A stretch of 64,000 nt of DNA from Gemmatimonadota bacterium (GCA_016177465.1 JACOVF010000072.1:3083-67082); one strand, 5' to 3'. Positions 7,451 through 52,220 are shown, numbered from the stretch's first letter. The notes: generated from the sequence alone by a model not told the origin. Program-made: numbers and translations.

Positions 7451-8377
7451 ATGGGAGAAGCGCCCACGACCACCTACCACGTGCCGGTGCTGGCCGACGC
7501 GGTGCGCGCCTGGGCGACCGGGAGTCGGCGCGCCGTGGATGCCACGGTGGGTGGCGGCGGTCACGCCGCCCTCTTGCGGGCCGCGGGCGCGGAGCTGCTG
7601 GTGATCGACCGCGACCCGGTGGCGATCGCTGTGGCGCGTGCGCGCCTTGGGGACGAGGGCGTCCGCTATGTGACGGCGCCGTTCGCCGCTGCGGCGGCCC
7701 TGGCCGCCGCGCGCGCCTTCCGGCCGGATCGGATCCTCCTCGACCTCGGCGTCTCCTCCCACCAGCTCGATGACGCCGAGCGCGGGTTTACCTTTCGGGA
7801 GGGCGCGCCGCTCGACATGCGGATGACCCCGGGGCAGGGGCCGAGCGCGGCCGACGTGCTGAACTCGTGGCCGGAGGAGCGGCTGGCTGCGGCGTTCCGG
7901 GACTGGGCGGACGAGCCGCGGGGGCGTGCGCTGGCGCGTACGGTGCTCCGGCGGCGGTTGCGCGAGCCGTTCCTCGTGAGCGACGACTTCGTGAACGCGA
8001 TCCGGGAGACGCTGGGGCCCCGCTCGGGCCCGTCCGACTTCGCGCGCCTCTTCCAGGCGCTGCGCATCGCCGTGAACGCGGAGCTCGACCAGCTCGCCGC
8101 GGCGCTTCCTGCGCTGCGCGACGCCCTGGTTCCCGGCGGCCGCATCGGCGTGATCACCTATCACTCGGGGGAGGACCGGGTCGTAAAGCACACCTTCCGC
8201 GAGTGGGGCCAGACGTGCATCTGCCCGCCGCGCCAGCCGGTGTGCACCTGCCGCGGTCGCGCGCTGGGGCGCGTGCTCACGAAGAAAGCGATCCGGCCCG
8301 ATCCAGCGGAGACCGCGGCCAACTCGCGGGCGCGCTCGGCGCAGTTCCGGATCTTCGAGGTGGCGCATGGCGCTTAA
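7451..8377 (+). CDS. rsmH: 16S rRNA (cytosine1402-N4)-methyltransferase RsmH (MraW)
   Basis: Track ORF 7322..8377 overlaps the tRNA, so ATG 7451 chosen (MGEAPTTTYHVPVL...); motifs HVPVL, DATVGGGGHA, DLGVSSHQLD, SGEDRVVK. Confidence 0.9.
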   Translation: MGEAPTTTYHVPVLADAVRAWATGSRRAVDATVGGGGHAALLRAAGAELLVIDRDPVAIAVARARLGDEGVRYVTAPFAAAAALAAARAFRPDRILLDLGVSSHQLDDAERGFTFREGAPLDMRMTPGQGPSAADVLNSWPEERLAAAFRDWADEPRGRALARTVLRRRLREPFLVSDDFVNAIRETLGPRSGPSDFARLFQALRIAVNAELDQLAAALPALRDALVPGGRIGVITYHSGEDRVVKHTFREWGQTCICPPRQPVCTCRGRALGRVLTKKAIRPDPAETAANSRARSAQFRIFEVAHGA

Positions 8378-45494: not shown

Positions 45495-45635
45495 TGAATC
45501 CCGGGGATGCGACTGCACAGGGAACGAGACTGCGCGCGTCGCGGTCTCCGCAGTCATCTACCCGCACGTATTTGTGCCGAGGCGGGTTCGGGGTCCGGAG
45601 TCCTGCCGACAGCCTGTAGGGGGCGCGAGCGTAAC

Positions 45636-45660
45636 TAGACAGCGCCCGGCTCGCTGTCTA
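45636..45660. other. perfect 9-bp hairpin TAGACAGCG-N7-CGCTGTCTA at the left edge of the island
   Basis: Seen directly; flanked by GCGTAAC (45629) and followed 86 nt later by GTTAGCC (45746-45752), a GTTRRRY-like box just before the first cassette. Confidence 0.4.
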
Positions 45661-45769
45661 AACCACAGGCGGCGGGGTGGAGAACGCGGATTAGATGGCA
45701 GGAACGGCTCGCAGTCTGTGCTTTCGACTGGTCAATCCAATTCACGTTAGCCGAACGACCCGGGCATCG

Positions 45770-45778
45770 TGTTATATT
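45770..45778 (+). promoter_or_regulatory. extended -10 promoter TGTTATATT for the TA cassette (leaderless-type)
   Basis: TGT-TATATT at 45770-45778; ATG 45789 lies about 10 nt downstream with no SD. Confidence 0.4.
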
Positions 45779-45788
45779 GACGGCAGCT

Positions 45789-45989
45789 ATGAGCAAGATC
45801 GAGTCGCTTGAACGCGAGATTCGCAAACTCTCTTCCGAGGAACTGTCTCAGTTCCGCCGGTGGTTTGCGGCATTCGACGCCGCCGTCTGGGATCGGCAGC
45901 TGGAAGCGGATGCCGCAGCGGGGAAGCTTGACGCCCTGGCGGACGCCGCGCTCGCGGATCATCAGGCAGGCCGTTCGCGCAAGCTTTGA
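45789..45989 (+). CDS. type II antitoxin-like protein
   Basis: 66 aa from ATG 45789 (track start TTG 45777); MSKIESLEREIRKLSSEELSQFRRWFAAFDAAVWDRQLEADAAAGKLDAL, a pattern I associate with antitoxins paired with RelE/ParE-superfamily toxins; stop overlaps the toxin start (TTTGA). Confidence 0.65.
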   Translation: MSKIESLEREIRKLSSEELSQFRRWFAAFDAAVWDRQLEADAAAGKLDALADAALADHQAGRSRKL

Positions 45990-46239
45990 ACCACTATGCG
46001 GCGCCGAGCTTCTGGAAATGCTATGAGGCTCTGCCAGAAGCCATTCGGACTCTCGCCGACAAGCAGTTTGAGCTTATCAAGACCAATCCCCGCCATCCAT
46101 CACTCCACTTCAAACGGATTGGTCGCTTTCACTCAGCCGGTGTTGGGCACACTACCGGGCGCTCGCCGTAGACGCCCAGGACGGGGTACTGTGGTTCTGG
46201 ATAGGCACACATGCGGAGTACGATCGCGTCGTCGGCTAA
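45986..46239 (+). pseudogene. RelE/ParE-superfamily-like toxin, frameshifted
   Basis: Frame 1 reads ...LPEAIRTLADKQFELIKTNPRHPSLHFKRIGRFHSAGVGH then stops at 46171; shifting the frame around 46150-46156 continues YRALAVDAQDGVLWFWIGTHAEYDRVVG to TAA 46237-46239. Confidence 0.6.
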
Positions 46240-46371
46240 CCAGCGGCTGAAGCTGGCGCCGCCCGGCCTTGGCAGAATTCCGTTTGTGCCCCAACGTAGA
46301 GCTGTGCTCACTCCATCCTTGCGGCTCGCCCGCCCTATGAGGCGGCGCAGCTTAGCCGCGATCCGTTAGGC
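46234..46371 (+). repeat. attC-like site 1 (138 nt)
   Basis: R'' GGCTAAC 46234-46240, R' GTTAGGC 46365-46371; hand pairing GCGGCT/AGCCGC, AAGCTG/CAGCTT, CGCCGCC/GGCGGCG with unpaired G at 46249 and 46256. Confidence 0.65.
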
Positions 46372-46422
46372 GTCGCTGATTAACGCGAGTCTTGAGGTTG
46401 AGGAGCTAAGGGAGGCGCGATC

Positions 46423-47250
46423 ATGTCAAACACAATGCAGAGCCAGCTTGGTTCGGTGGTTGGCCTGTGGCGCTATCCTGTCAAGTCAATGATGGGAGAG
46501 GAGCTAAACGCCGCCCACGTTACGGAACGCGGGCTGCTCGGGGATCGCGCGTACGCGCTTGTCGACCCGTCCAATGGGAAAGTTGCCAGCGCCAAGAACC
46601 CGCGGAAATGGGCGAAGCTCTTCGATTGCCGGGCCGCCTTTGCCGGGTCCCCGCGCCTTGGCGAGAAGATACCTCCAGCCCGGATCACCCTTCCGGACGG
46701 AACCATCGTCACCAGTGAGCAGAGTGACGTCACGCAAATCCTGTCGAAGGTGTTTGGTCGGGAGGTGACCCTTGAGACCACGGCGCCCCAGACGCCCAGC
46801 CTCGAGGAGTACTGGCCGGACATGGAGGGCCTGGCCCACAGGGAAACGACCACCGATGAGACTATGCCGGCCGGCACATTCTTCGATCTGGCCGTCATCC
46901 ATGTGTTGACGACTGCCACGATCGACCGGCTTCGGGAGCTCTATCCGCAAGGGCGCGTCGAGGTGCGGCGGTTTCGTCCTAACATAGTGGTAGAGGTTGC
47001 CTCCGGCGAGAAAGATTTCGTTGAAAACGCTTGGGTTGGCCACACGCTGGCCATCGGGAACGAGCTTCGCCTGAATATCAGTGGCCCCTGCCCCCGCTGC
47101 GTGATGACGACCCTGCCGCAGGGGGACCTCCCAAAGGACCCGGGGATCTTGCGTACGGCGGCCCACCATAACCAAGTCAACGTCGGTGTTTATGCCGCTG
47201 TGGTCCGGGGCGGCGCGATCCGCCGCGGTGATCCGGTCAGGATCGATTAG
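46423..47250 (+). CDS. MOSC domain-containing protein (YcbX-like)
   Basis: 275 aa; LWRYPVKSMMGEEL N-terminal beta-barrel and C-terminal ...GPCPRCVMTT MOSC cysteine motif; GGGAGG 8 nt upstream. Confidence 0.8.
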   Translation: MSNTMQSQLGSVVGLWRYPVKSMMGEELNAAHVTERGLLGDRAYALVDPSNGKVASAKNPRKWAKLFDCRAAFAGSPRLGEKIPPARITLPDGTIVTSEQSDVTQILSKVFGREVTLETTAPQTPSLEEYWPDMEGLAHRETTTDETMPAGTFFDLAVIHVLTTATIDRLRELYPQGRVEVRRFRPNIVVEVASGEKDFVENAWVGHTLAIGNELRLNISGPCPRCVMTTLPQGDLPKDPGILRTAAHHNQVNVGVYAAVVRGGAIRRGDPVRID

Positions 47251-47279
47251 CCTGACCAAGTCGACGTTGACGACGCGAC

Positions 47280-47512
47280 GCCTAACCAGCGCAGAGGCTG
47301 TGTGAAAACGCCACCTTGGCAGAAGTGGCAGCGCGCAAAATCAACGACTTAAGGGTGCTCAGAACCAGGTTTTCGCACAGGCTCCGCATGGAGCTGGCGG
47401 CGCCGTGTTCTGATGGAAGCGTTATGTTGTTCGCCAACGACCCTGCGGTGATGGCTGGGCGCACGGTGCGCCAGCGAGCTCGGCGTCGCAGCTCATGCGC
47501 GATTCGTTAGGC
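47280..47512 (+). repeat. attC-like site 2 (233 nt, atypically long)
   Basis: R'' GCCTAAC 47280-47286 and R' GTTAGGC 47506-47512 (7/7 complementary); GCGCA/TGCGC and GAG-CTG/CAGCTC inner stems; same CA vs GATTC spacer asymmetry as site 1. Confidence 0.55.
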
Positions 47513-47550
47513 AGCGCAGGCGAGTCTTAGGCCTAAACGAGGAAGGCCAC

Positions 47551-47799
47551 ATGGACCCTGCTGTGTTCCTTGTCGCACTCGTAACAGTCGTGGGGACCGC
47601 TGCTTTCACGATTGTCAAGGTTGCTCGTCTGTGGACCACTCGTCCAGAATCACCATCGGTCGACGTCACTGCGCGGGTCGAGGAGCTTGAGCGTAGTGTC
47701 CTGGGCCTCCAACAGGAGTTAGCGGAAACACAGGAGCGGCTCGATTTCGCAGAGCGTTTACTCAGCACCGCACGGGAAGAGCGGCGGATTGGCAGCTAG
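47551..47799 (+). CDS. TM + coiled-coil miniprotein, ERLDFAER family (paralog 1)
   Basis: 82 aa; N-terminal TM (VFLVALVTVVGTAAFTIV), coiled coil, C-terminal ETQERLDFAERLL motif shared with 50237..50584; GAGGAAGG upstream. Confidence 0.7.
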   Translation: MDPAVFLVALVTVVGTAAFTIVKVARLWTTRPESPSVDVTARVEELERSVLGLQQELAETQERLDFAERLLSTAREERRIGS

Positions 47800-47865
47800 A
47801 GACAACTCCGCCGACTTGAGCAACCGGGAACATAGCTGACAGAATGTCCGGGGACATGGTTAACA
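47800..47865 (+). repeat. possible short attC-like site 3
   Basis: AGACAAC 47800 / GAGCAAC 47818 ... GTTAACA 47859-47865; CCGCCGAC vs GTCCGGGG partial pairing; weak. Confidence 0.3.
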
Positions 47866-47982
47866 CTTGTCCTTGAGGGAGAGGGCCCCGGTGATGGTGT
47901 GGGTGTGTTCGTTGAAGCGACCGAGGAGCGTGTCGTAGTAGAGGAGGTTCCAGAGGCCGTCCTTGAAGCGGTCCCGGTTTTC
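47860..47982 (-). pseudogene. orphan C-terminal gene fragment (40 codons) abutting the IS end
   Basis: Reads ENRDRFKDGLWNLLYYDTLLGRFNEHTHTITGALSLKDKC-stop on the minus strand, in frame right up to the IS terminus; the plus-strand reading is antisense-like (EATEERVVVEEVPEAV). Confidence 0.35.
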
Positions 47983-48002
47983 TGGACAGGGGGGCGGCTT
48001 AA

Positions 48003-49279
48003 TCACGCCGCCCGCCGCGTGAGGCTCAAGCGGACGTCGGCCGGGGTCCGGTAGCCGTGCCGCTCGAGCAGCCACGCCTGATTGTAGCGCTCGATGAACT
48101 CTCCGATCACCTGCCGCGCCGCGTCGAGCGTCGCGAAGTCGTGCAGGTACAGACATTCCTCTTTCAGCGTCCGGATCCAGCGCTCCATGATTCCGGTGCA
48201 CTCGGGCTCGCCCACGTAGCTGGGACTCGGCCGGATGCCCAGCCAGCGGAGCTCGCCCAGGAACTGATGCGCCGTGTACTGCGGGCCCCAGTCCATCCGG
48301 AGCCCCAAGCCGAGGGCGATCTTCGGCGCATACTGCCCGTGTGTCCGCTGCACGCCCTGGCGGATCGGCTCGAGCGCCGCCCACCGATCCCCGACCTTGG
48401 CCACGTGCCAGCCCACGATGTCCTCGACACCGTGGTCGATCGCGCCGAAGAACCAGCACCACCCCTCCCGCCGGGTGTAGAACCGCGTCGCGTCCGTCCC
48501 CCACAGCTCATCGGGGCGCGGCGTCGTGATCGTGCCCGCGTGCGCCCGATCCCCGCGCCGATGGCGCCGGCGGGTCGGGGCCAAGAGATTCGCCTGCCGC
48601 ATCAGCCGCAGCACTCGCGCCTTGCCGACCCGGATCCCGCGCGGCCGCAGGCGCGCCCGCACTTTCCGATGCCCCTCGGTGCAGAACCCACTGGCCTTGA
48701 GCACCGCCCGGATCTCGACGAGCAGCGTCGCGTCGTCCAGCGGCGTCCGCGGCCCCCGTTTCGCGGGGGTACCCCGATCCCTCCCCCCGTGGCGATCGTC
48801 GCTCTGCGAGGCGCGCAGTGCGTCGCGGTTGAGACCAGTCTCAGCCAGCCGCCGCGCGTACACCGTCGAGCGCGCCACCCGCCACATCGTGCAGATCATC
48901 GTCACGGGATACCGCTGTCCCGTCGCTGGGCTCACCAGCCGCGCGCCTTCTTCAACCTCGCCAGCTCCTCCCCGTACCCCCTTTTTTCGAGGAGCAGCTC
49001 GACGAGTTCCAACTGCATCGCGAGCTCCCCCACTTTCGCCTGCGCCTGCTTCAGCAACCGGGCTTCGCCCTCCCCATGCCGCTTCTTCAACCCTTCGCCC
49101 CCGGCCTCGAGAAACGTCCGCCGCCAGGCCCCAAGTTCGTGCGCCGGCACCTGGACCTCGCGACTCACGACGTCCACGGCCTCGCCGCGCAACAACCGGA
49201 GCACGATCTCGGTCTTCGCCTTCGCAATCCACCGCTCAGGCAAGTCCGCCGCCTGCTCCCGCTCGCTCACCACCGTCAT
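48003..49279 (-). CDS. IS3 transposase OrfAB (programmed -1 frameshift fusion; OrfB has the DDE/rve core)
   Basis: -1 slip at A AAA AAG joins ...LVELLLEK to KGVRGG...; OrfB has WGTDATRF, LRMDWGPQYTA, GIMERWIRTLKEE (D, D, E regions) and YNQAWLLERHGYRTP tail. Confidence 0.8.
48932..49279 (-). CDS. IS3 transposase OrfA (HTH + leucine zipper)
   Basis: 115 aa; WIAKAKTEIVLRLLRGE...VSREVQVPAHELGAWRRTF HTH, then heptad Leu region; contains AAAAAAG (minus strand of 48981-48987). Confidence 0.85.
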   Translation of the reverse strand: MTVVSEREQAADLPERWIAKAKTEIVLRLLRGEAVDVVSREVQVPAHELGAWRRTFLEAGGEGLKKRHGEGEARLLKQAQAKVGELAMQLELVELLLEKRGYGEELARLKKARGW

Positions 49280-49327
49280 GGCCCTCGCTCCTCGGACCCC
49301 TCAGAGATAGTCCAAATGCCTGTCCAA

Positions 49328-49813
49328 GGAAATCGGGGGCTCTATACCACGGGCTACGCCGACCGCGCCGATTCGACGGTGAGGCGCGACCTTGCATCGG
49401 TCGGGATCCAGGTTCGCGACGCCCCGGGGTACGTCCGGCTCGTCCGGAACTCGCCACACTACGGGGGTAGCGGCGTCTTCAGCACGGTGGAGGATCTGGC
49501 GAAGTGGGACGCCACTTTCGAGACGCACGTGCTCGGCGGACCAGCCTTGGCCGCCCAGATGCTCCAAACGCACCGCTTCGCACACGACAAAGACAACGAC
49601 GCGTTCGGTCTCGTCTTTGAGCGCTTCATGGGTCGTGAGATGATCTGGTTCTCAGGCGGCGACTTGGACGCCTCCACCTTCATGGCCCGCCTGCCCGCGG
49701 AGCGGCTGACCATCATCTGCCTCTCGAACATGCCGAAGGGCGATGCCGAGGGAAGGGCCCAGGCGGTGCTCCGGCTGGTCCTCGAGTCACGGACGACAGA
49801 CCAGGGGCCGTGA
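49328..49813 (+). pseudogene. C-terminal third of a beta-lactamase-family serine hydrolase, 5'-truncated at the IS
   Basis: In-frame part of track ORF 49076..49813 after the IS end: ...NSPHYGGSGVFSTVEDLAKWDATF...ERLTIICLSNM; the N-terminal SxxK-bearing two thirds are absent on both sides of the IS. Confidence 0.6.
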
Positions 49814-49828
49814 TCGGATCGATGGCGC

Positions 49829-49921
49829 GCGCAACGGCGCCTGAAGCTGGCGGCGCCTGCCTTCAAAGGAACCCGTATGTTTGTGCGCCTGGAGAGTGGG
49901 CGCCGCAGCTTTCTGTGAGGC
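49829..49921 (+). repeat. attC-like site 4 (93 nt, degenerate R boxes)
   Basis: GCGCAAC 49829 ... GTGAGGC 49915-49921; AAGCTG-(G)-CGGCGCC pairs with GGCGCCG-CAGCTT(T), homologous to the inner stems of site 1 including the bulged G. Confidence 0.5.
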
Positions 49922-50236
49922 GGCGCACCCTGTCAAGCCCGGCCCCCCGGTCGGGTTTGTCTTTCCTCTGTTGTCGGGCCGCGTGCGGCCCGTTTCAGCT
50001 GGTGCCCTCGAGGTGCCGCTCAGCCTTCTGTACGCGCTCTCGGTGACGAGGCATCCTCGTCGGCGCAAATGGGAATCCGAAAGAGCGGCGGCGCCAACTA
50101 AGCGACGACCTCAGCGGCGGTCATCAGCTGCAACGCGCTCACAGCGAGGAGCCGCGGAGTCCTCGTCTAACCAAGATCGGGAAGGCTTGACAGATTAGAC
50201 CTCATAGAAGGCGGTTGGCGACACTAGGAGGAATAC

Positions 50237-50584
50237 GTGTGGTTCAAGCACCGAGCTTGGATACCTGTCGCGTGGCTCCTCTGTTTCGGGAACCTTATCG
50301 CCGTCTGGTTCGCCGCTCGGCCGGCTGAGCCTTGGCATGCGACAGTCCACGCGCTACTGGCGGTGCTGTTTGGTCTCGGGGCACAACGCCTTGCGCTGGG
50401 GAAAAAACCCACCGCTGACGCAGACGTGGTGGGAAGGTTGGGGGAACTCGAAGCACGGCTTGCCGACCTAGACAAGTTGCAGGACGTGGAAGGCCGACTT
50501 ACCGAGCTAGAGGAGCGCCTCGACTTTACTGAGCGAGCATTGGTGAACGTCCGGACTCGCGCTCAACTTCCGCCCAAAGAGTGA
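50237..50584 (+). CDS. TM + coiled-coil miniprotein, ERLDFTER family (paralog 2)
   Basis: 115 aa; GTG start with AGGAGG 50226-50231; two N-terminal TM helices, coiled coil, LEERLDFTERAL motif. Confidence 0.7.
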   Translation: MWFKHRAWIPVAWLLCFGNLIAVWFAARPAEPWHATVHALLAVLFGLGAQRLALGKKPTADADVVGRLGELEARLADLDKLQDVEGRLTELEERLDFTERALVNVRTRAQLPPKE

Positions 50585-50624
50585 ACGGTGCATTGCGGTG
50601 GGGTGAGCAACCGGGGCGCGGTGG

Positions 50625-50768
50625 GGCGGTGTACCGCCCGCTGGGTGTCTGGCCGTCGAGGGCGGCGTGCGGCCGCTCGTCATTGTACAGCGCCCGAAAG
50701 CGATTGAAGGCGCGCTGCCAGGCGGCGAGGGTGGCTCCCAATGCCCACACGATTTCCTGAAGCGCCAT
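50625..50768 (-). pseudogene. C-terminal scar of an rve-type (IS3/IS481-like) transposase
   Basis: ...AWQRAFNRFRALYNDERPHAALDGQTPSGRY, the conserved YN..RPH..L.G.TP tail of DDE integrase-core transposases; no upstream catalytic part (stops within 30 nt). Confidence 0.5.
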
Positions 50769-50799
50769 ATTCTCTACTCAGCGCGCGACAAGGCTACAG

Positions 50800-51309
50800 G
50801 TGAATAGGCGCTCCCTCGATTCTCAGGCCTTGCTCCAGCGACCCCGCCAAGCCCCGCCAGTGGGGCGCGCACTCCGCATCCTGCTCGGCCTCGCCCTGAC
50901 TGTTCACGTGGTGCCCATTTACCTCCGAGTGGACCTGCCACTTGCCGTCGGGGCCTTGCTGCTGATGCTTGGGTTGATTGGCGTCTACAGCCTGATCCAT
51001 GTCATTGCATCGCGACGCATCGTTGGCTTTGGCCCCGGCCTCGGGGCGGTCGTGGCGCTGGGGTTGCTCGTCGCGCTGTATGTTGCCGGCGCCCCCGGGT
51101 CACCGATCCTTGGTCGCGGAGAGGGTGAGCTGGCGGCAGTCACCTTCCTGAGTATCTCGTTGGTGGTTGCTGGCGTGCGCGCCGATCCCGGTTGCGAGGT
51201 GATGGCAATCCCGGGGGCCCTTTGGGGAACGCACAGCGAACTGGCGTGTCTCGTCTTCTCCCCCCTCGACCGACTTGAGCGCAAGTTGCGGAGCAAGCGC
51301 GCCGCCTGA
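50800..51309 (+). CDS. hypothetical 4-TM membrane protein
   Basis: 169 aa; four hydrophobic helices, C-terminal ADPGCEVMAIPG...ELACLVFSPLD; weak SD, GTG start. Confidence 0.5.
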   Translation: MNRRSLDSQALLQRPRQAPPVGRALRILLGLALTVHVVPIYLRVDLPLAVGALLLMLGLIGVYSLIHVIASRRIVGFGPGLGAVVALGLLVALYVAGAPGSPILGRGEGELAAVTFLSISLVVAGVRADPGCEVMAIPGALWGTHSELACLVFSPLDRLERKLRSKRAA

Positions 51310-51448
51310 TATCAACTTTGAACGCAACACCGAGTCTCAACGGGCATAGCATCCTTGCCGGCGCGAGGCCTGCTGCTCACTCGCCTTGTGCCGGACTTCA
51401 CGGAGTCATAGCTTGGCCATCGCCCACCACATACGCCGGAGACATTCC

Positions 51449-51934
51449 ATGCGCACGTTCACTGCTCCCGCAGCCTTGGTGCTCGGGATCGCCGCGGCGG
51501 CCTGTGGCCGCCAGCCGCCACCAGTTGATCTCGAGGCAGCGCGTGCCTCGCTGCGCACCGCGGACAGCGGATACTCGCAAACGGCATCTGGTAAGAACCT
51601 CGAGGCGTTCGTGGCGCTCTATGAGCCCAGCGCGACCATGTACCCACCCGCAGAGGCGCTTGCTCAAGGCACCGAGGCCATCCGCGCCTTCGCGGGCGCG
51701 TTCCTGAAGGATCCGGCTTTCGCGGTCAGGTTTACCCCGGTAGCCGTGGAAGTTGCGGCCAATGGCGACATGGGCTACACGCTGAATACCGTGGACATCA
51801 CCGTAACCGGTCCTGACGGGAAGCCAGCGACCGAGCGAATTCGCGATTTCCACCTTTGGCGGAAGCAGGCCGACGGCCGCTGGAAGGTTGTGGTCGATAT
51901 CTGGAACGCCGAACCGCCACCGCCTACCAAGTGA
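51449..51934 (+). CDS. NTF2/SnoaL-like (DUF4440-like) lipoprotein
   Basis: ATG 51449 within track ORF 51386..51934; signal + lipobox (LGIAAAAC); ...FVALYEPSATMYPP...DFHLWRKQADGRWKVVVDIWN, typical NTF2-like fold signature. Confidence 0.65.
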   Translation: MRTFTAPAALVLGIAAAACGRQPPPVDLEAARASLRTADSGYSQTASGKNLEAFVALYEPSATMYPPAEALAQGTEAIRAFAGAFLKDPAFAVRFTPVAVEVAANGDMGYTLNTVDITVTGPDGKPATERIRDFHLWRKQADGRWKVVVDIWNAEPPPPTK

Positions 51935-51983
51935 CGTGTGACGCCACTAGCACACCAACCACCCCTCGCTGTGAGGCCCCTCG

Positions 51984-52220
51984 ATGGTCGACACGCTCAC
52001 CCCACCGTACCTACCGCCGATTCCACCTCACCTGCCCGAGGTTCGGGTCCAGCCCCTGCTTGTCTACGTCCAGCCCGTCTGGGAGTACAAACATGTCGTC
52101 GCCCAGATGGCTCCCGACGAGGTTGCACTCAACGCCCTCGGGGCTGAAGGCTGGGAACTCGTCGGCGTGGTCCCTGCGCCTGATGCCATGCACTTCTACT
52201 TGAAACGCTTGGTGCGCTGA
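51984..52220 (+). CDS. DUF4177-like small protein
   Basis: 78 aa; ...LNALGAEGWELVGVVP...FYLKR resembles the GWELV core of DUF4177. Confidence 0.5.
   Translation: MVDTLTPPYLPPIPPHLPEVRVQPLLVYVQPVWEYKHVVAQMAPDEVALNALGAEGWELVGVVPAPDAMHFYLKRLVR

Follow-up and report, generated by a model that had tools for sequence, protein, structure and literature searches.

The window analysed here comprises 64,000 nucleotides (nt) of a Gemmatimonadota bacterium (GCA_016177465.1, JACOVF010000072.1:3083-67082; contig C19:3083-67082) and belongs to an assembly of 1.97 Mb in 160 contigs that is 87.5% complete and has a G+C content of 69.6%. It carries two short open reading frames (ORFs), ORF1 and ORF2, each followed by the same 12-mer. 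A first-pass annotation, made from the sequence alone, had described them as paralogous membrane-anchored coiled-coil miniproteins carried as mobile cassettes. Coordinates and translation confirmed both ORFs, with the peptides quoted in that annotation:

47551..47799, plus strand: ORF1, ATG start, 82 amino acids (aa), C-terminal box QERLDFAERLL
50237..50584, plus strand: ORF2, GTG start behind AGGAGG, 115 aa, box EERLDFTERAL

Two conserved miniproteins and the ERxDFxER family

Judged from profile searches and alignments, ORF1 and ORF2 are dispersed members of an unnamed Gemmatimonadota family, termed here the ERxDFxER family, with ORF1 carrying one transmembrane (TM) helix and ORF2 belonging to a subfamily with two. 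A Shine-Dalgarno-like GAGGAAGG or AGGAGG precedes the start of each gene. AlphaFold2 models built from orthologue alignments place helices at residues 3-29 (TM) and 35-81 of ORF1, with a mean predicted local distance difference test (pLDDT) score of 85 and values of 92-97 over residues 41-80. In ORF2, TM helices at 8-26 and 33-55 are followed by a cytoplasmic helix at 60-110 (mean pLDDT 74). The last TM helix of each protein is followed by basic (K/R) residues; on the positive-inside rule, the long C-terminal helix is therefore predicted to be cytoplasmic. No Pfam or NCBIfam model matches either protein above its cut-off.

The two proteins are related to each other directly (BLASTP, 36% identity over 56 aa, E 5e-6) and through a profile built from 57 proteins of the tandem arrays described below, all from other genomes and with ORF1, ORF2 and a third host paralogue left out. 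Scores on this array-only profile are 66.3 bits for ORF1, 41.8 bits for ORF2 and 39.6 bits for the third paralogue. The paralogy proposed in the first-pass annotation is thus upheld, and so is the shared layout of TM segment, coiled coil and C-terminal box, which is seen both in the predicted helices and in the conservation of the box across 60 sequences. Members of the family have one or two TM helices, a C-terminal cytoplasmic coiled coil of about 45-50 residues and the near-invariant box E-R-x-D-F-x-E-R-x-L. In the 60-sequence alignment (ORF1 numbering) F66 and R69 are invariant, and conservation reaches 90% or more at E62, R63, D65, E68 and L71.

The profile made from this alignment matches 4,111 representatives (clusters at 50% identity) at E <= 1e-3, and 1,566 at E <= 1e-10, among 1.84 billion proteins. 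When it was searched against 185,579 species genomes, 77 of the best 80 loci carried a Gemmatimonad* label; the remaining three came from metagenome-assembled genomes labelled Streptosporangiaceae, NC10 and 'uncultured bacterium'. The first-pass annotation had allowed that the motif might prove a ubiquitous coiled-coil feature of no conserved context. It is instead lineage-restricted, and the context of the array members is conserved, while the expected 12-mer beside other family members was not found.

The third host paralogue, a more distant member of 87 aa with the box EELQFVNRLLE, lies at the end of contig C52 (minus strand, about 8039-8299; locus L005 1489-1752), immediately ahead of a gene named by eye from its translation as a murJ-like lipid II flippase gene.

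Conservation was followed in 40 genomes of relatives: 24 of the same family (f1), among which the unpublished genome G014 is counted, 8 of family f2 and 8 of family f3. Searches with ORF1 and ORF2 gave matches in 24/24 f1 and 0/8 f2 genomes, and in f3 in 7/8 (ORF1) and 4/8 (ORF2). Near-full-length orthologues form 1,564 clusters at 90% identity for ORF1, mostly of 82 aa, and 620 for ORF2, mostly of 115 aa. The mean column identity of the ORF1 subfamily is 82%, and the ratio of nonsynonymous to synonymous substitution rates (dN/dS) for ORF1 ranges from 0.20 to 0.77, below 1 in 16/16 orthologue pairs. By these comparative measures, both genes belong to the ordinary, conserved content of the chromosome, and their products are predicted small inner-membrane proteins. 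The comparison of ORF1 with its closest relative, L060, gives the high dN/dS of 0.77, and ORF1 is off-consensus at several conserved positions, for example V44, S50 and L52; constraint on the gene could be relaxed in the host lineage.

Among ORF2 orthologues, the conserved residues are F3, W8, N19, H34, H38, A49 and L52, together with R94, D96, F97, E99 and R100 of the box. N19, within the first TM helix, and H34 and H38, which form a His-x3-His pair at the start of the second, are invariant in 46 sequences of the ORF2 subfamily, which is odd for a simple anchor.

The host genes are 2.4 kb apart, with insertion sequence (IS) debris and a gene fragment between them, and do not occupy a tandem-array position. 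Among relatives, L104 has an ORF1-type and an ORF2-type gene side by side, as does L103 according to tblastn, and three family genes stand in a row in L065, L073, L079 and L080. Two candidate neighbours of ORF2 were set aside. A beta-lactamase-family gene lies upstream of ORF2 in the window, and G002 has the pairing too, but comparison of the two proteins shows no relationship (E 3.4). The ORF2 orthologue of G009 (81% identical) is followed at once by a 72-aa PspC-domain gene (L020 1845-2060, E 2.5e-22), a pairing seen in this one relative; the PspC domain occurs in only 6/41 genomes and, outside G009, lies elsewhere than beside an ORF2 orthologue.

Tandem arrays, pspA and the probable relation to PspB

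In the genomes of relatives, family matches are often stacked a few hundred bases apart. Eight arrays were fetched, which contain 9, 9, 8, 7, 6, 8, 5 and 5 members in tightly packed, often overlapping genes. Each member combines one or more TM helices with a coiled coil and ends in the tail ELEERLDF(A/T)ERLLA..RE..LP.G, a G(K/R)A(I/L)A.RI.G stretch usually being present as well. Their mean column identity is 19%, against 82% for the ORF1 subfamily. In the scanned flanks, uvrA lies upstream at one locus, and downstream there follow a CesT_Tir_1/YbjN-like gene (E ~1e-27, 3 loci) and then PspA_IM30 (E 1e-46 to 1e-49, 4 loci). Family genes were located upstream of pspA on the same contig and strand, in most cases separated from it by a cesT/ybjN-like gene, in 21/24 f1 genomes, one of them G014, and in 6/8 f3 genomes, but in 0/8 f2 genomes; in the three f1 exceptions, pspA and the family matches are on different contigs. 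The gene order suggests that array and pspA, tightly packed on the same strand, behave as if they were one operon.

Several observations concern the make-up of these loci. Recurring subtypes can be picked out by eye in the arrays L029-L036, namely 'GILAI..FGGGT', one with a proline-rich N-terminus and a 2-TM 'G(M/L)DWFD' type, and the last of these adjoins the cesT-like gene in several arrays, again by eye. The apparent persistence of these subtypes across genomes hints at a set that is ordered and of some age, and not at duplications of recent date. In G003 the cesT-like gene between array and pspA is apparently missing, as judged from coordinates only (43-nt gap). Four f2 loci (L237-L240) have no family gene upstream of pspA; in L237, uvrA lies within about 600 nt of pspA, and in the other three L-serine-dehydratase-like genes intervene. 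Since the sister family f2 is without the array, the array would be either an add-on or a loss within the order.

A dyad of a CesT/Tir-like chaperone and PspA, with band-7/flotillin, AAA+ ATPase, YqiJ/YuaF and polyamine genes as partners, has been described (Ravi et al. 2024, mSystems, PMC11237479), and the relatives' arrays end in exactly such a dyad, CesT_Tir_1 and then PspA_IM30. The term 'Gemmatimon' is absent from the main text of that paper, in which the two 'tandem' passages concern PspA or Snf7 repeats, and the available text of Popp et al. 2022 (PMC9239133) has no 'Gemmatimon' mention. Titles and abstract starts of the literature on Gemmatimonadota or Gemmatimonas with PspA or phage shock protein do not present the family either, supplementary tables being outside this scope.

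The family also shows a faint likeness to PspB. The model TIGR02976 (PspB) is its commonest sub-threshold match (27/60 members, best E 1.4e-4), Pfam PspB (PF06667) matches 5/60 members below its cut-off, and in a six-frame scan of 41 genomes many weak Pfam-PspB matches land on family genes. One box-bearing relative of 86 aa, from G014, passes the Pfam PspB cut-off (27.2 against 25.6 bits, model positions 9-72 of 73) and at the same time scores 47.2 bits on the array-only profile. In the reverse direction, the array-only profile gives PspB of E. coli a score of 17.2 bits, a value reached by 0/2,000 shuffles (1,000 of the full protein and 1,000 of its cytoplasmic part; maximum 14.7). In the ESM Atlas, Gemmatimonadota clusters come first (0.95-0.96), and the nearest named one is a half-PspB cluster at 0.77, which serves as a lead only.

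PspB and the family have in common a length of about 75-85 aa, an N-terminal TM helix, a cytoplasmic C-terminal coiled coil, a genetic link to pspA and a weak but order-specific sequence similarity. ORF1 has this bitopic layout, whereas ORF2 departs from it with two TM helices. The ERxDFxER box is a feature of the family and is absent from the PspB alignment consensus; moreover, the family forms 5-9 tandem paralogues upstream of pspA, while PspB is one gene downstream of it. The PspB operon contains pspA and pspC, but ORF1 and ORF2 lie outside any psp operon and, as noted, PspC is rare in these genomes. By the curated model tests ORF1 and ORF2 are not PspB members, and it is moderately probable that the family as a whole is a very divergent, multiplied PspB offshoot.

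Taken together with the findings on the 12-mer given below, these data favour, with moderate confidence, the reading that ORF1 and ORF2 are stray members of a PspA-linked and probably PspB-derived family, that they most likely act as membrane partners of PspA, and that the 12-mer is IS debris. PspA, IM30 and Vipp1 are bacterial ESCRT-III-like membrane-repair proteins. Under this mechanism, the TM parts would sit in the membrane and read its state, with the variable TM and N-terminal parts diversifying what is sensed, and the cytoplasmic helices, paired with one another by way of their common box, would recruit PspA or regulate it. The strays, among them ORF1 and the His- and Asn-bearing ORF2, may feed further inputs into the same system. 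LiaI of Bacillus subtilis and PspM of Mycobacterium are small membrane proteins that serve as anchors or partners of PspA homologues. They resemble the family in being lineage-specific and encoded with a PspA homologue, a likeness that offers a functional idea only. LiaI and PspM are, however, single genes, whereas the family comes as multi-paralogue arrays with one shared cytoplasmic box.

Several points weigh against this interpretation. The proposed binding to PspA is drawn from gene order alone. ORF1, ORF2 and the C52 paralogue have no PspB match in Pfam or NCBIfam even at E <= 10, and hhalign of the family (alignment A1) against an 18-sequence PspB alignment, a narrow enterobacterial one, gives a probability of 19% (E 0.0012, 26 columns). 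In none of the relatives examined do ORF1- or ORF2-type genes stand beside pspA. Neighbourhoods are loose as well: ten ORF2-type loci have unrelated neighbours, and among 73 loci with at least 1.5 kb of downstream sequence only 9 (10 at most with L103) have an ORF2-type gene within 3 kb downstream of the ORF1-type gene, which weakens the idea of an ancestral ORF1-ORF2 operon. The f2 genomes keep pspA and, where resolved, the cesT-like gene without an array, so PspA works without the miniproteins there. Finally, no pspA, pspC, cesT-like gene or array was found in the host assembly, and the PspA link therefore cannot be demonstrated for the host itself. For the cesT-like gene this blank says little, as the CesT_Tir_1 control matched nowhere; a single partial UvrA-type match lies on C25. 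Because pspA is present in 24/24 f1 relatives and repeats assemble badly, its absence from the host is probably an assembly gap. A complex prediction that combined PspA (1-225) and the cytoplasmic portion of one array protein, both taken from a single relative, gave scores of 0.02 and 0.00; it was run with no controls and carries no weight either way.

The strongest competing explanation, although an unlikely one, is that ORF1 and ORF2 are generic membrane-anchored coiled-coil scaffolds that have an ancestor in common with the arrays and now serve, for example, envelope growth or division and have no tie to PspA. It fits the dispersal of both genes among non-conserved neighbours, the position of the C52 paralogue ahead of the murJ-like gene and the missing pspA of the host, and the much greater conservation of ORF1 than of the array members would suit a role of its own. 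On the other hand, the invariant box is the same as in array members, which argues for a shared partner or mode of pairing, and the presence of pspA throughout f1 makes its absence in the host an uncertain argument.

It is very improbable that the genes, kept near mobile DNA, encode phage-exclusion effectors or small toxins of the membrane (peptides of the type I toxin, holin-like or abortive-infection kind), an idea to which their small size, membrane insertion and position beside IS remnants lend some appeal. Their vertical conservation at fixed length across many genomes speaks against it, as do the paralogues in an apparent operon with a housekeeping-type stress gene and the fact that the IS neighbours are specific to the window. 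Among the neighbours scanned there was no antitoxin partner or defence-gene context, PADLOC not having been searched.

The 12-mer and the insertion sequence remnants

Beyond the two genes, the region contains the following features.

47817..47828, plus strand: 12-mer copy 1, outermost letters of the right terminal inverted repeat in IS481-family remnant A
47817..47982, minus strand: IS481-family remnant A, the last ~170 nt of the element, comprising the final transposase codons (stop 47860-47862) and ~50 nt of terminal repeat
47983..49327, minus strand: IS3-type insertion sequence, orfA 48932-49279 and orfB ~48003-48930 (HTH_21, rve, rve_3)
49331..49813, plus strand: 3' fragment of a beta-lactamase-family gene (PF00144, E 8.5e-8, profile positions 216-322 of 329), cut short by the IS3-type element
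50604..50615, plus strand: 12-mer copy 2, IS481-family repeat tip, whose first letters TGA are also present in the uninterrupted L019
50604..50741, minus strand: IS481-family remnant B, repeat tip fused to an internal transposase piece ...YNDERPHAALDGQTPSGRYTAPPRP (rve_3)

The identical 12-mer reported behind both genes, TGAGCAACCGGG, occurs exactly twice in the window (0.03 expected), 17 and 19 nt after the stops of ORF1 and ORF2, and twice in the whole assembly; a copy with one mismatch lies at 49051-49062 inside the IS3-type orfA. The first-pass annotation had taken the 3' ends of the two genes to be homologous, a view that does not hold, since the stretches between stop codon and 12-mer are unrelated and the 12-mer belongs to inserted IS DNA.

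Comparison with relatives places the boundary of this insertion precisely. The 12-mer is missing from all 80 metagenome loci in which a relative of ORF1 is encoded (65-87% protein identity), and their DNA homology never passes 47816 (0/80), with 17 loci stopping exactly there. After the ORF1 stop, relatives continue with ...CCGACT followed by GCGCTGCCTAACAAGCGCTTGAAGCTGGCGGCGC, which resembles a repetitive extragenic palindromic (REP) element, where the window has ...CCGACT followed by TGAGCAACCGGG. The locus of an 88%-identical ORF2 orthologue, L019, is collinear to 50606 and then diverges. Altogether, 0/160 related miniprotein loci contain the 12-mer.

The source of the 12-mer was recognised in transposase relatives, which are present in 16/120 same-family genomes and include open frames of 397-400 aa with the domains LZ_Tnp_IS481, HTH_32, rve and rve_3. 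Such full-length IS481-family relatives have a DDE transposase with a leucine zipper and a helix-turn-helix, and imperfect terminal inverted repeats of about 47 nt (79-85% complementary), whereas the window holds fragments only. After the transposase stop they end in ...GTTACC.AT...CCCGGTTGCTCA, the reverse complement of the 12-mer, and the flanks beyond differ. The exact 12-mer was located at this transposase-downstream end in 7/11 fetched IS loci from other Gemmatimonadales genomes, with unrelated flanks; across all 240 fetched loci it is confined to the own-genome loci and these seven. A target preference of the IS481-type element for family genes was considered and rejected, as 0/11 IS loci hold a family ORF and their flanks are unrelated.

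Both remnants agree with this origin. The C-terminus encoded by remnant A resembles ...GIWSIYF..VLL.+LDERD..I of full-length relatives, and its sub-terminal stretch of about 50 nt matches theirs (TGAGCAACCGGGAACATAGCTGACAGAATG against, for instance, TGAGCAACCGGGAACATAGATGACAGAATT in L149). Remnant A ends at 47982/47983, where it is severed by the IS3-type element. Remnant B has lost the sub-terminal repeat along with about 100 codons, and the remaining transposase piece has up to 75% identity to 397-aa transposases. Its frame runs into and through the 12-mer, which corrects the earlier placement of a transposase scar about 10 nt beyond the second copy. No target duplication is readable for the IS481-type remnants, and no further copies of them were found in the host assembly beyond the window. 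The homology break at the 12-mer, combined with the same tip in IS relatives, identifies it as IS debris and not as part of a cassette: by this comparison it represents the outermost part of the right inverted repeat in an IS481-family element, unrelated to ORF1 and ORF2. Two decayed copies of one such element would have landed downstream of each gene, the first being hit later by the IS3-type element.

That ORF1 and ORF2 are mobile cassettes, integron-like or similar, with the 12-mer marking a recombination site, is therefore extremely improbable: the identical 12-mers and the nearby transposase debris that had suggested it are accounted for by IS ends elsewhere without family genes, the native sequence after ORF1 is a different one, and both genes are conserved and core-like, with orthologues of fixed length. 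The proposed attC-like 3' site likewise comes down to the IS481-family repeat tip, the only shared 3' sequence. Pfam scans of neighbouring ORFs yielded only IS transposase domains, no search having been aimed at an integrase or attI.

The IS3-type element ends in TGGACAGG ... CCTGTCCA, as assigned by eye, and has no target duplication. Its position within remnant A, abutting the truncated beta-lactamase-family gene and without target duplication, points to a later deletion or an IS-mediated rearrangement. The Logan contigs of four DNA runs are short and bridge only the junctions of remnant A with the IS3-type element and of the latter with the beta-lactamase fragment, these in runs of one study that is possibly the source sample; a low-support Logan joint 47512>49837 (side 28) falls in repeated elements and was disregarded.

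Apart from the IS pieces and the beta-lactamase fragment, the DNA between ORF1 and ORF2 is non-coding and includes a REP-like element. This palindromic element is seen at 47389-47520, 49837-49911 and ~46230-46380, with arms ...GCGCTTGAAGCTGGCGGCGC / GCGCCGCAGCTTAAGCGC...GTTAGGCAGCGCAG, and recurs in many related contigs. In relatives (L060-L102), inverted REP-like copies bracket ORF1, one touching the ribosome-binding site and one just past the stop, and remnant A starts exactly where this downstream copy should begin. No Rfam match was obtained in 45500-52000 at E <= 0.1, and a promoter scan of 47250-50700 returned no sigma-70-type sites.

Possible significance for PspA-linked membrane stress

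Of the suggestions made in the first-pass annotation, that of an activity in membrane stress gains plausibility from the profile-based membership of both ORFs in an undescribed family and from the arrays upstream of pspA. A more far-reaching and rather doubtful extension holds that the family is a PspB-derived, multiplied adaptor set, in which many membrane sensors share one cytoplasmic docking helix and would convey distinct insults to a single PspA/ESCRT-III polymer, with strays located outside the operon. ORF2, with its Asn and His-x3-His residues, could then serve specifically as a sensor, whether of pH, metal, proton-motive force or another such cue.

The window itself is modest, as it offers two stray copies in an assembly without pspA, and its eye-catching repeat is IS debris. 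What it adds is that conserved solitary family members exist outside the psp operon, that polar residues within or beside the TM helices are invariant in one subfamily, and that intermediate sequences tie the family weakly to PspB. How PspA and its kin are brought to sites of membrane damage has been established for only a few model lineages, where PspBC, LiaI and PspM are involved. The Gemmatimonadota, abundant in soil, appear as a phylum to rely on another set of small membrane proteins, one made up of many paralogues that have a docking-type helix in common.

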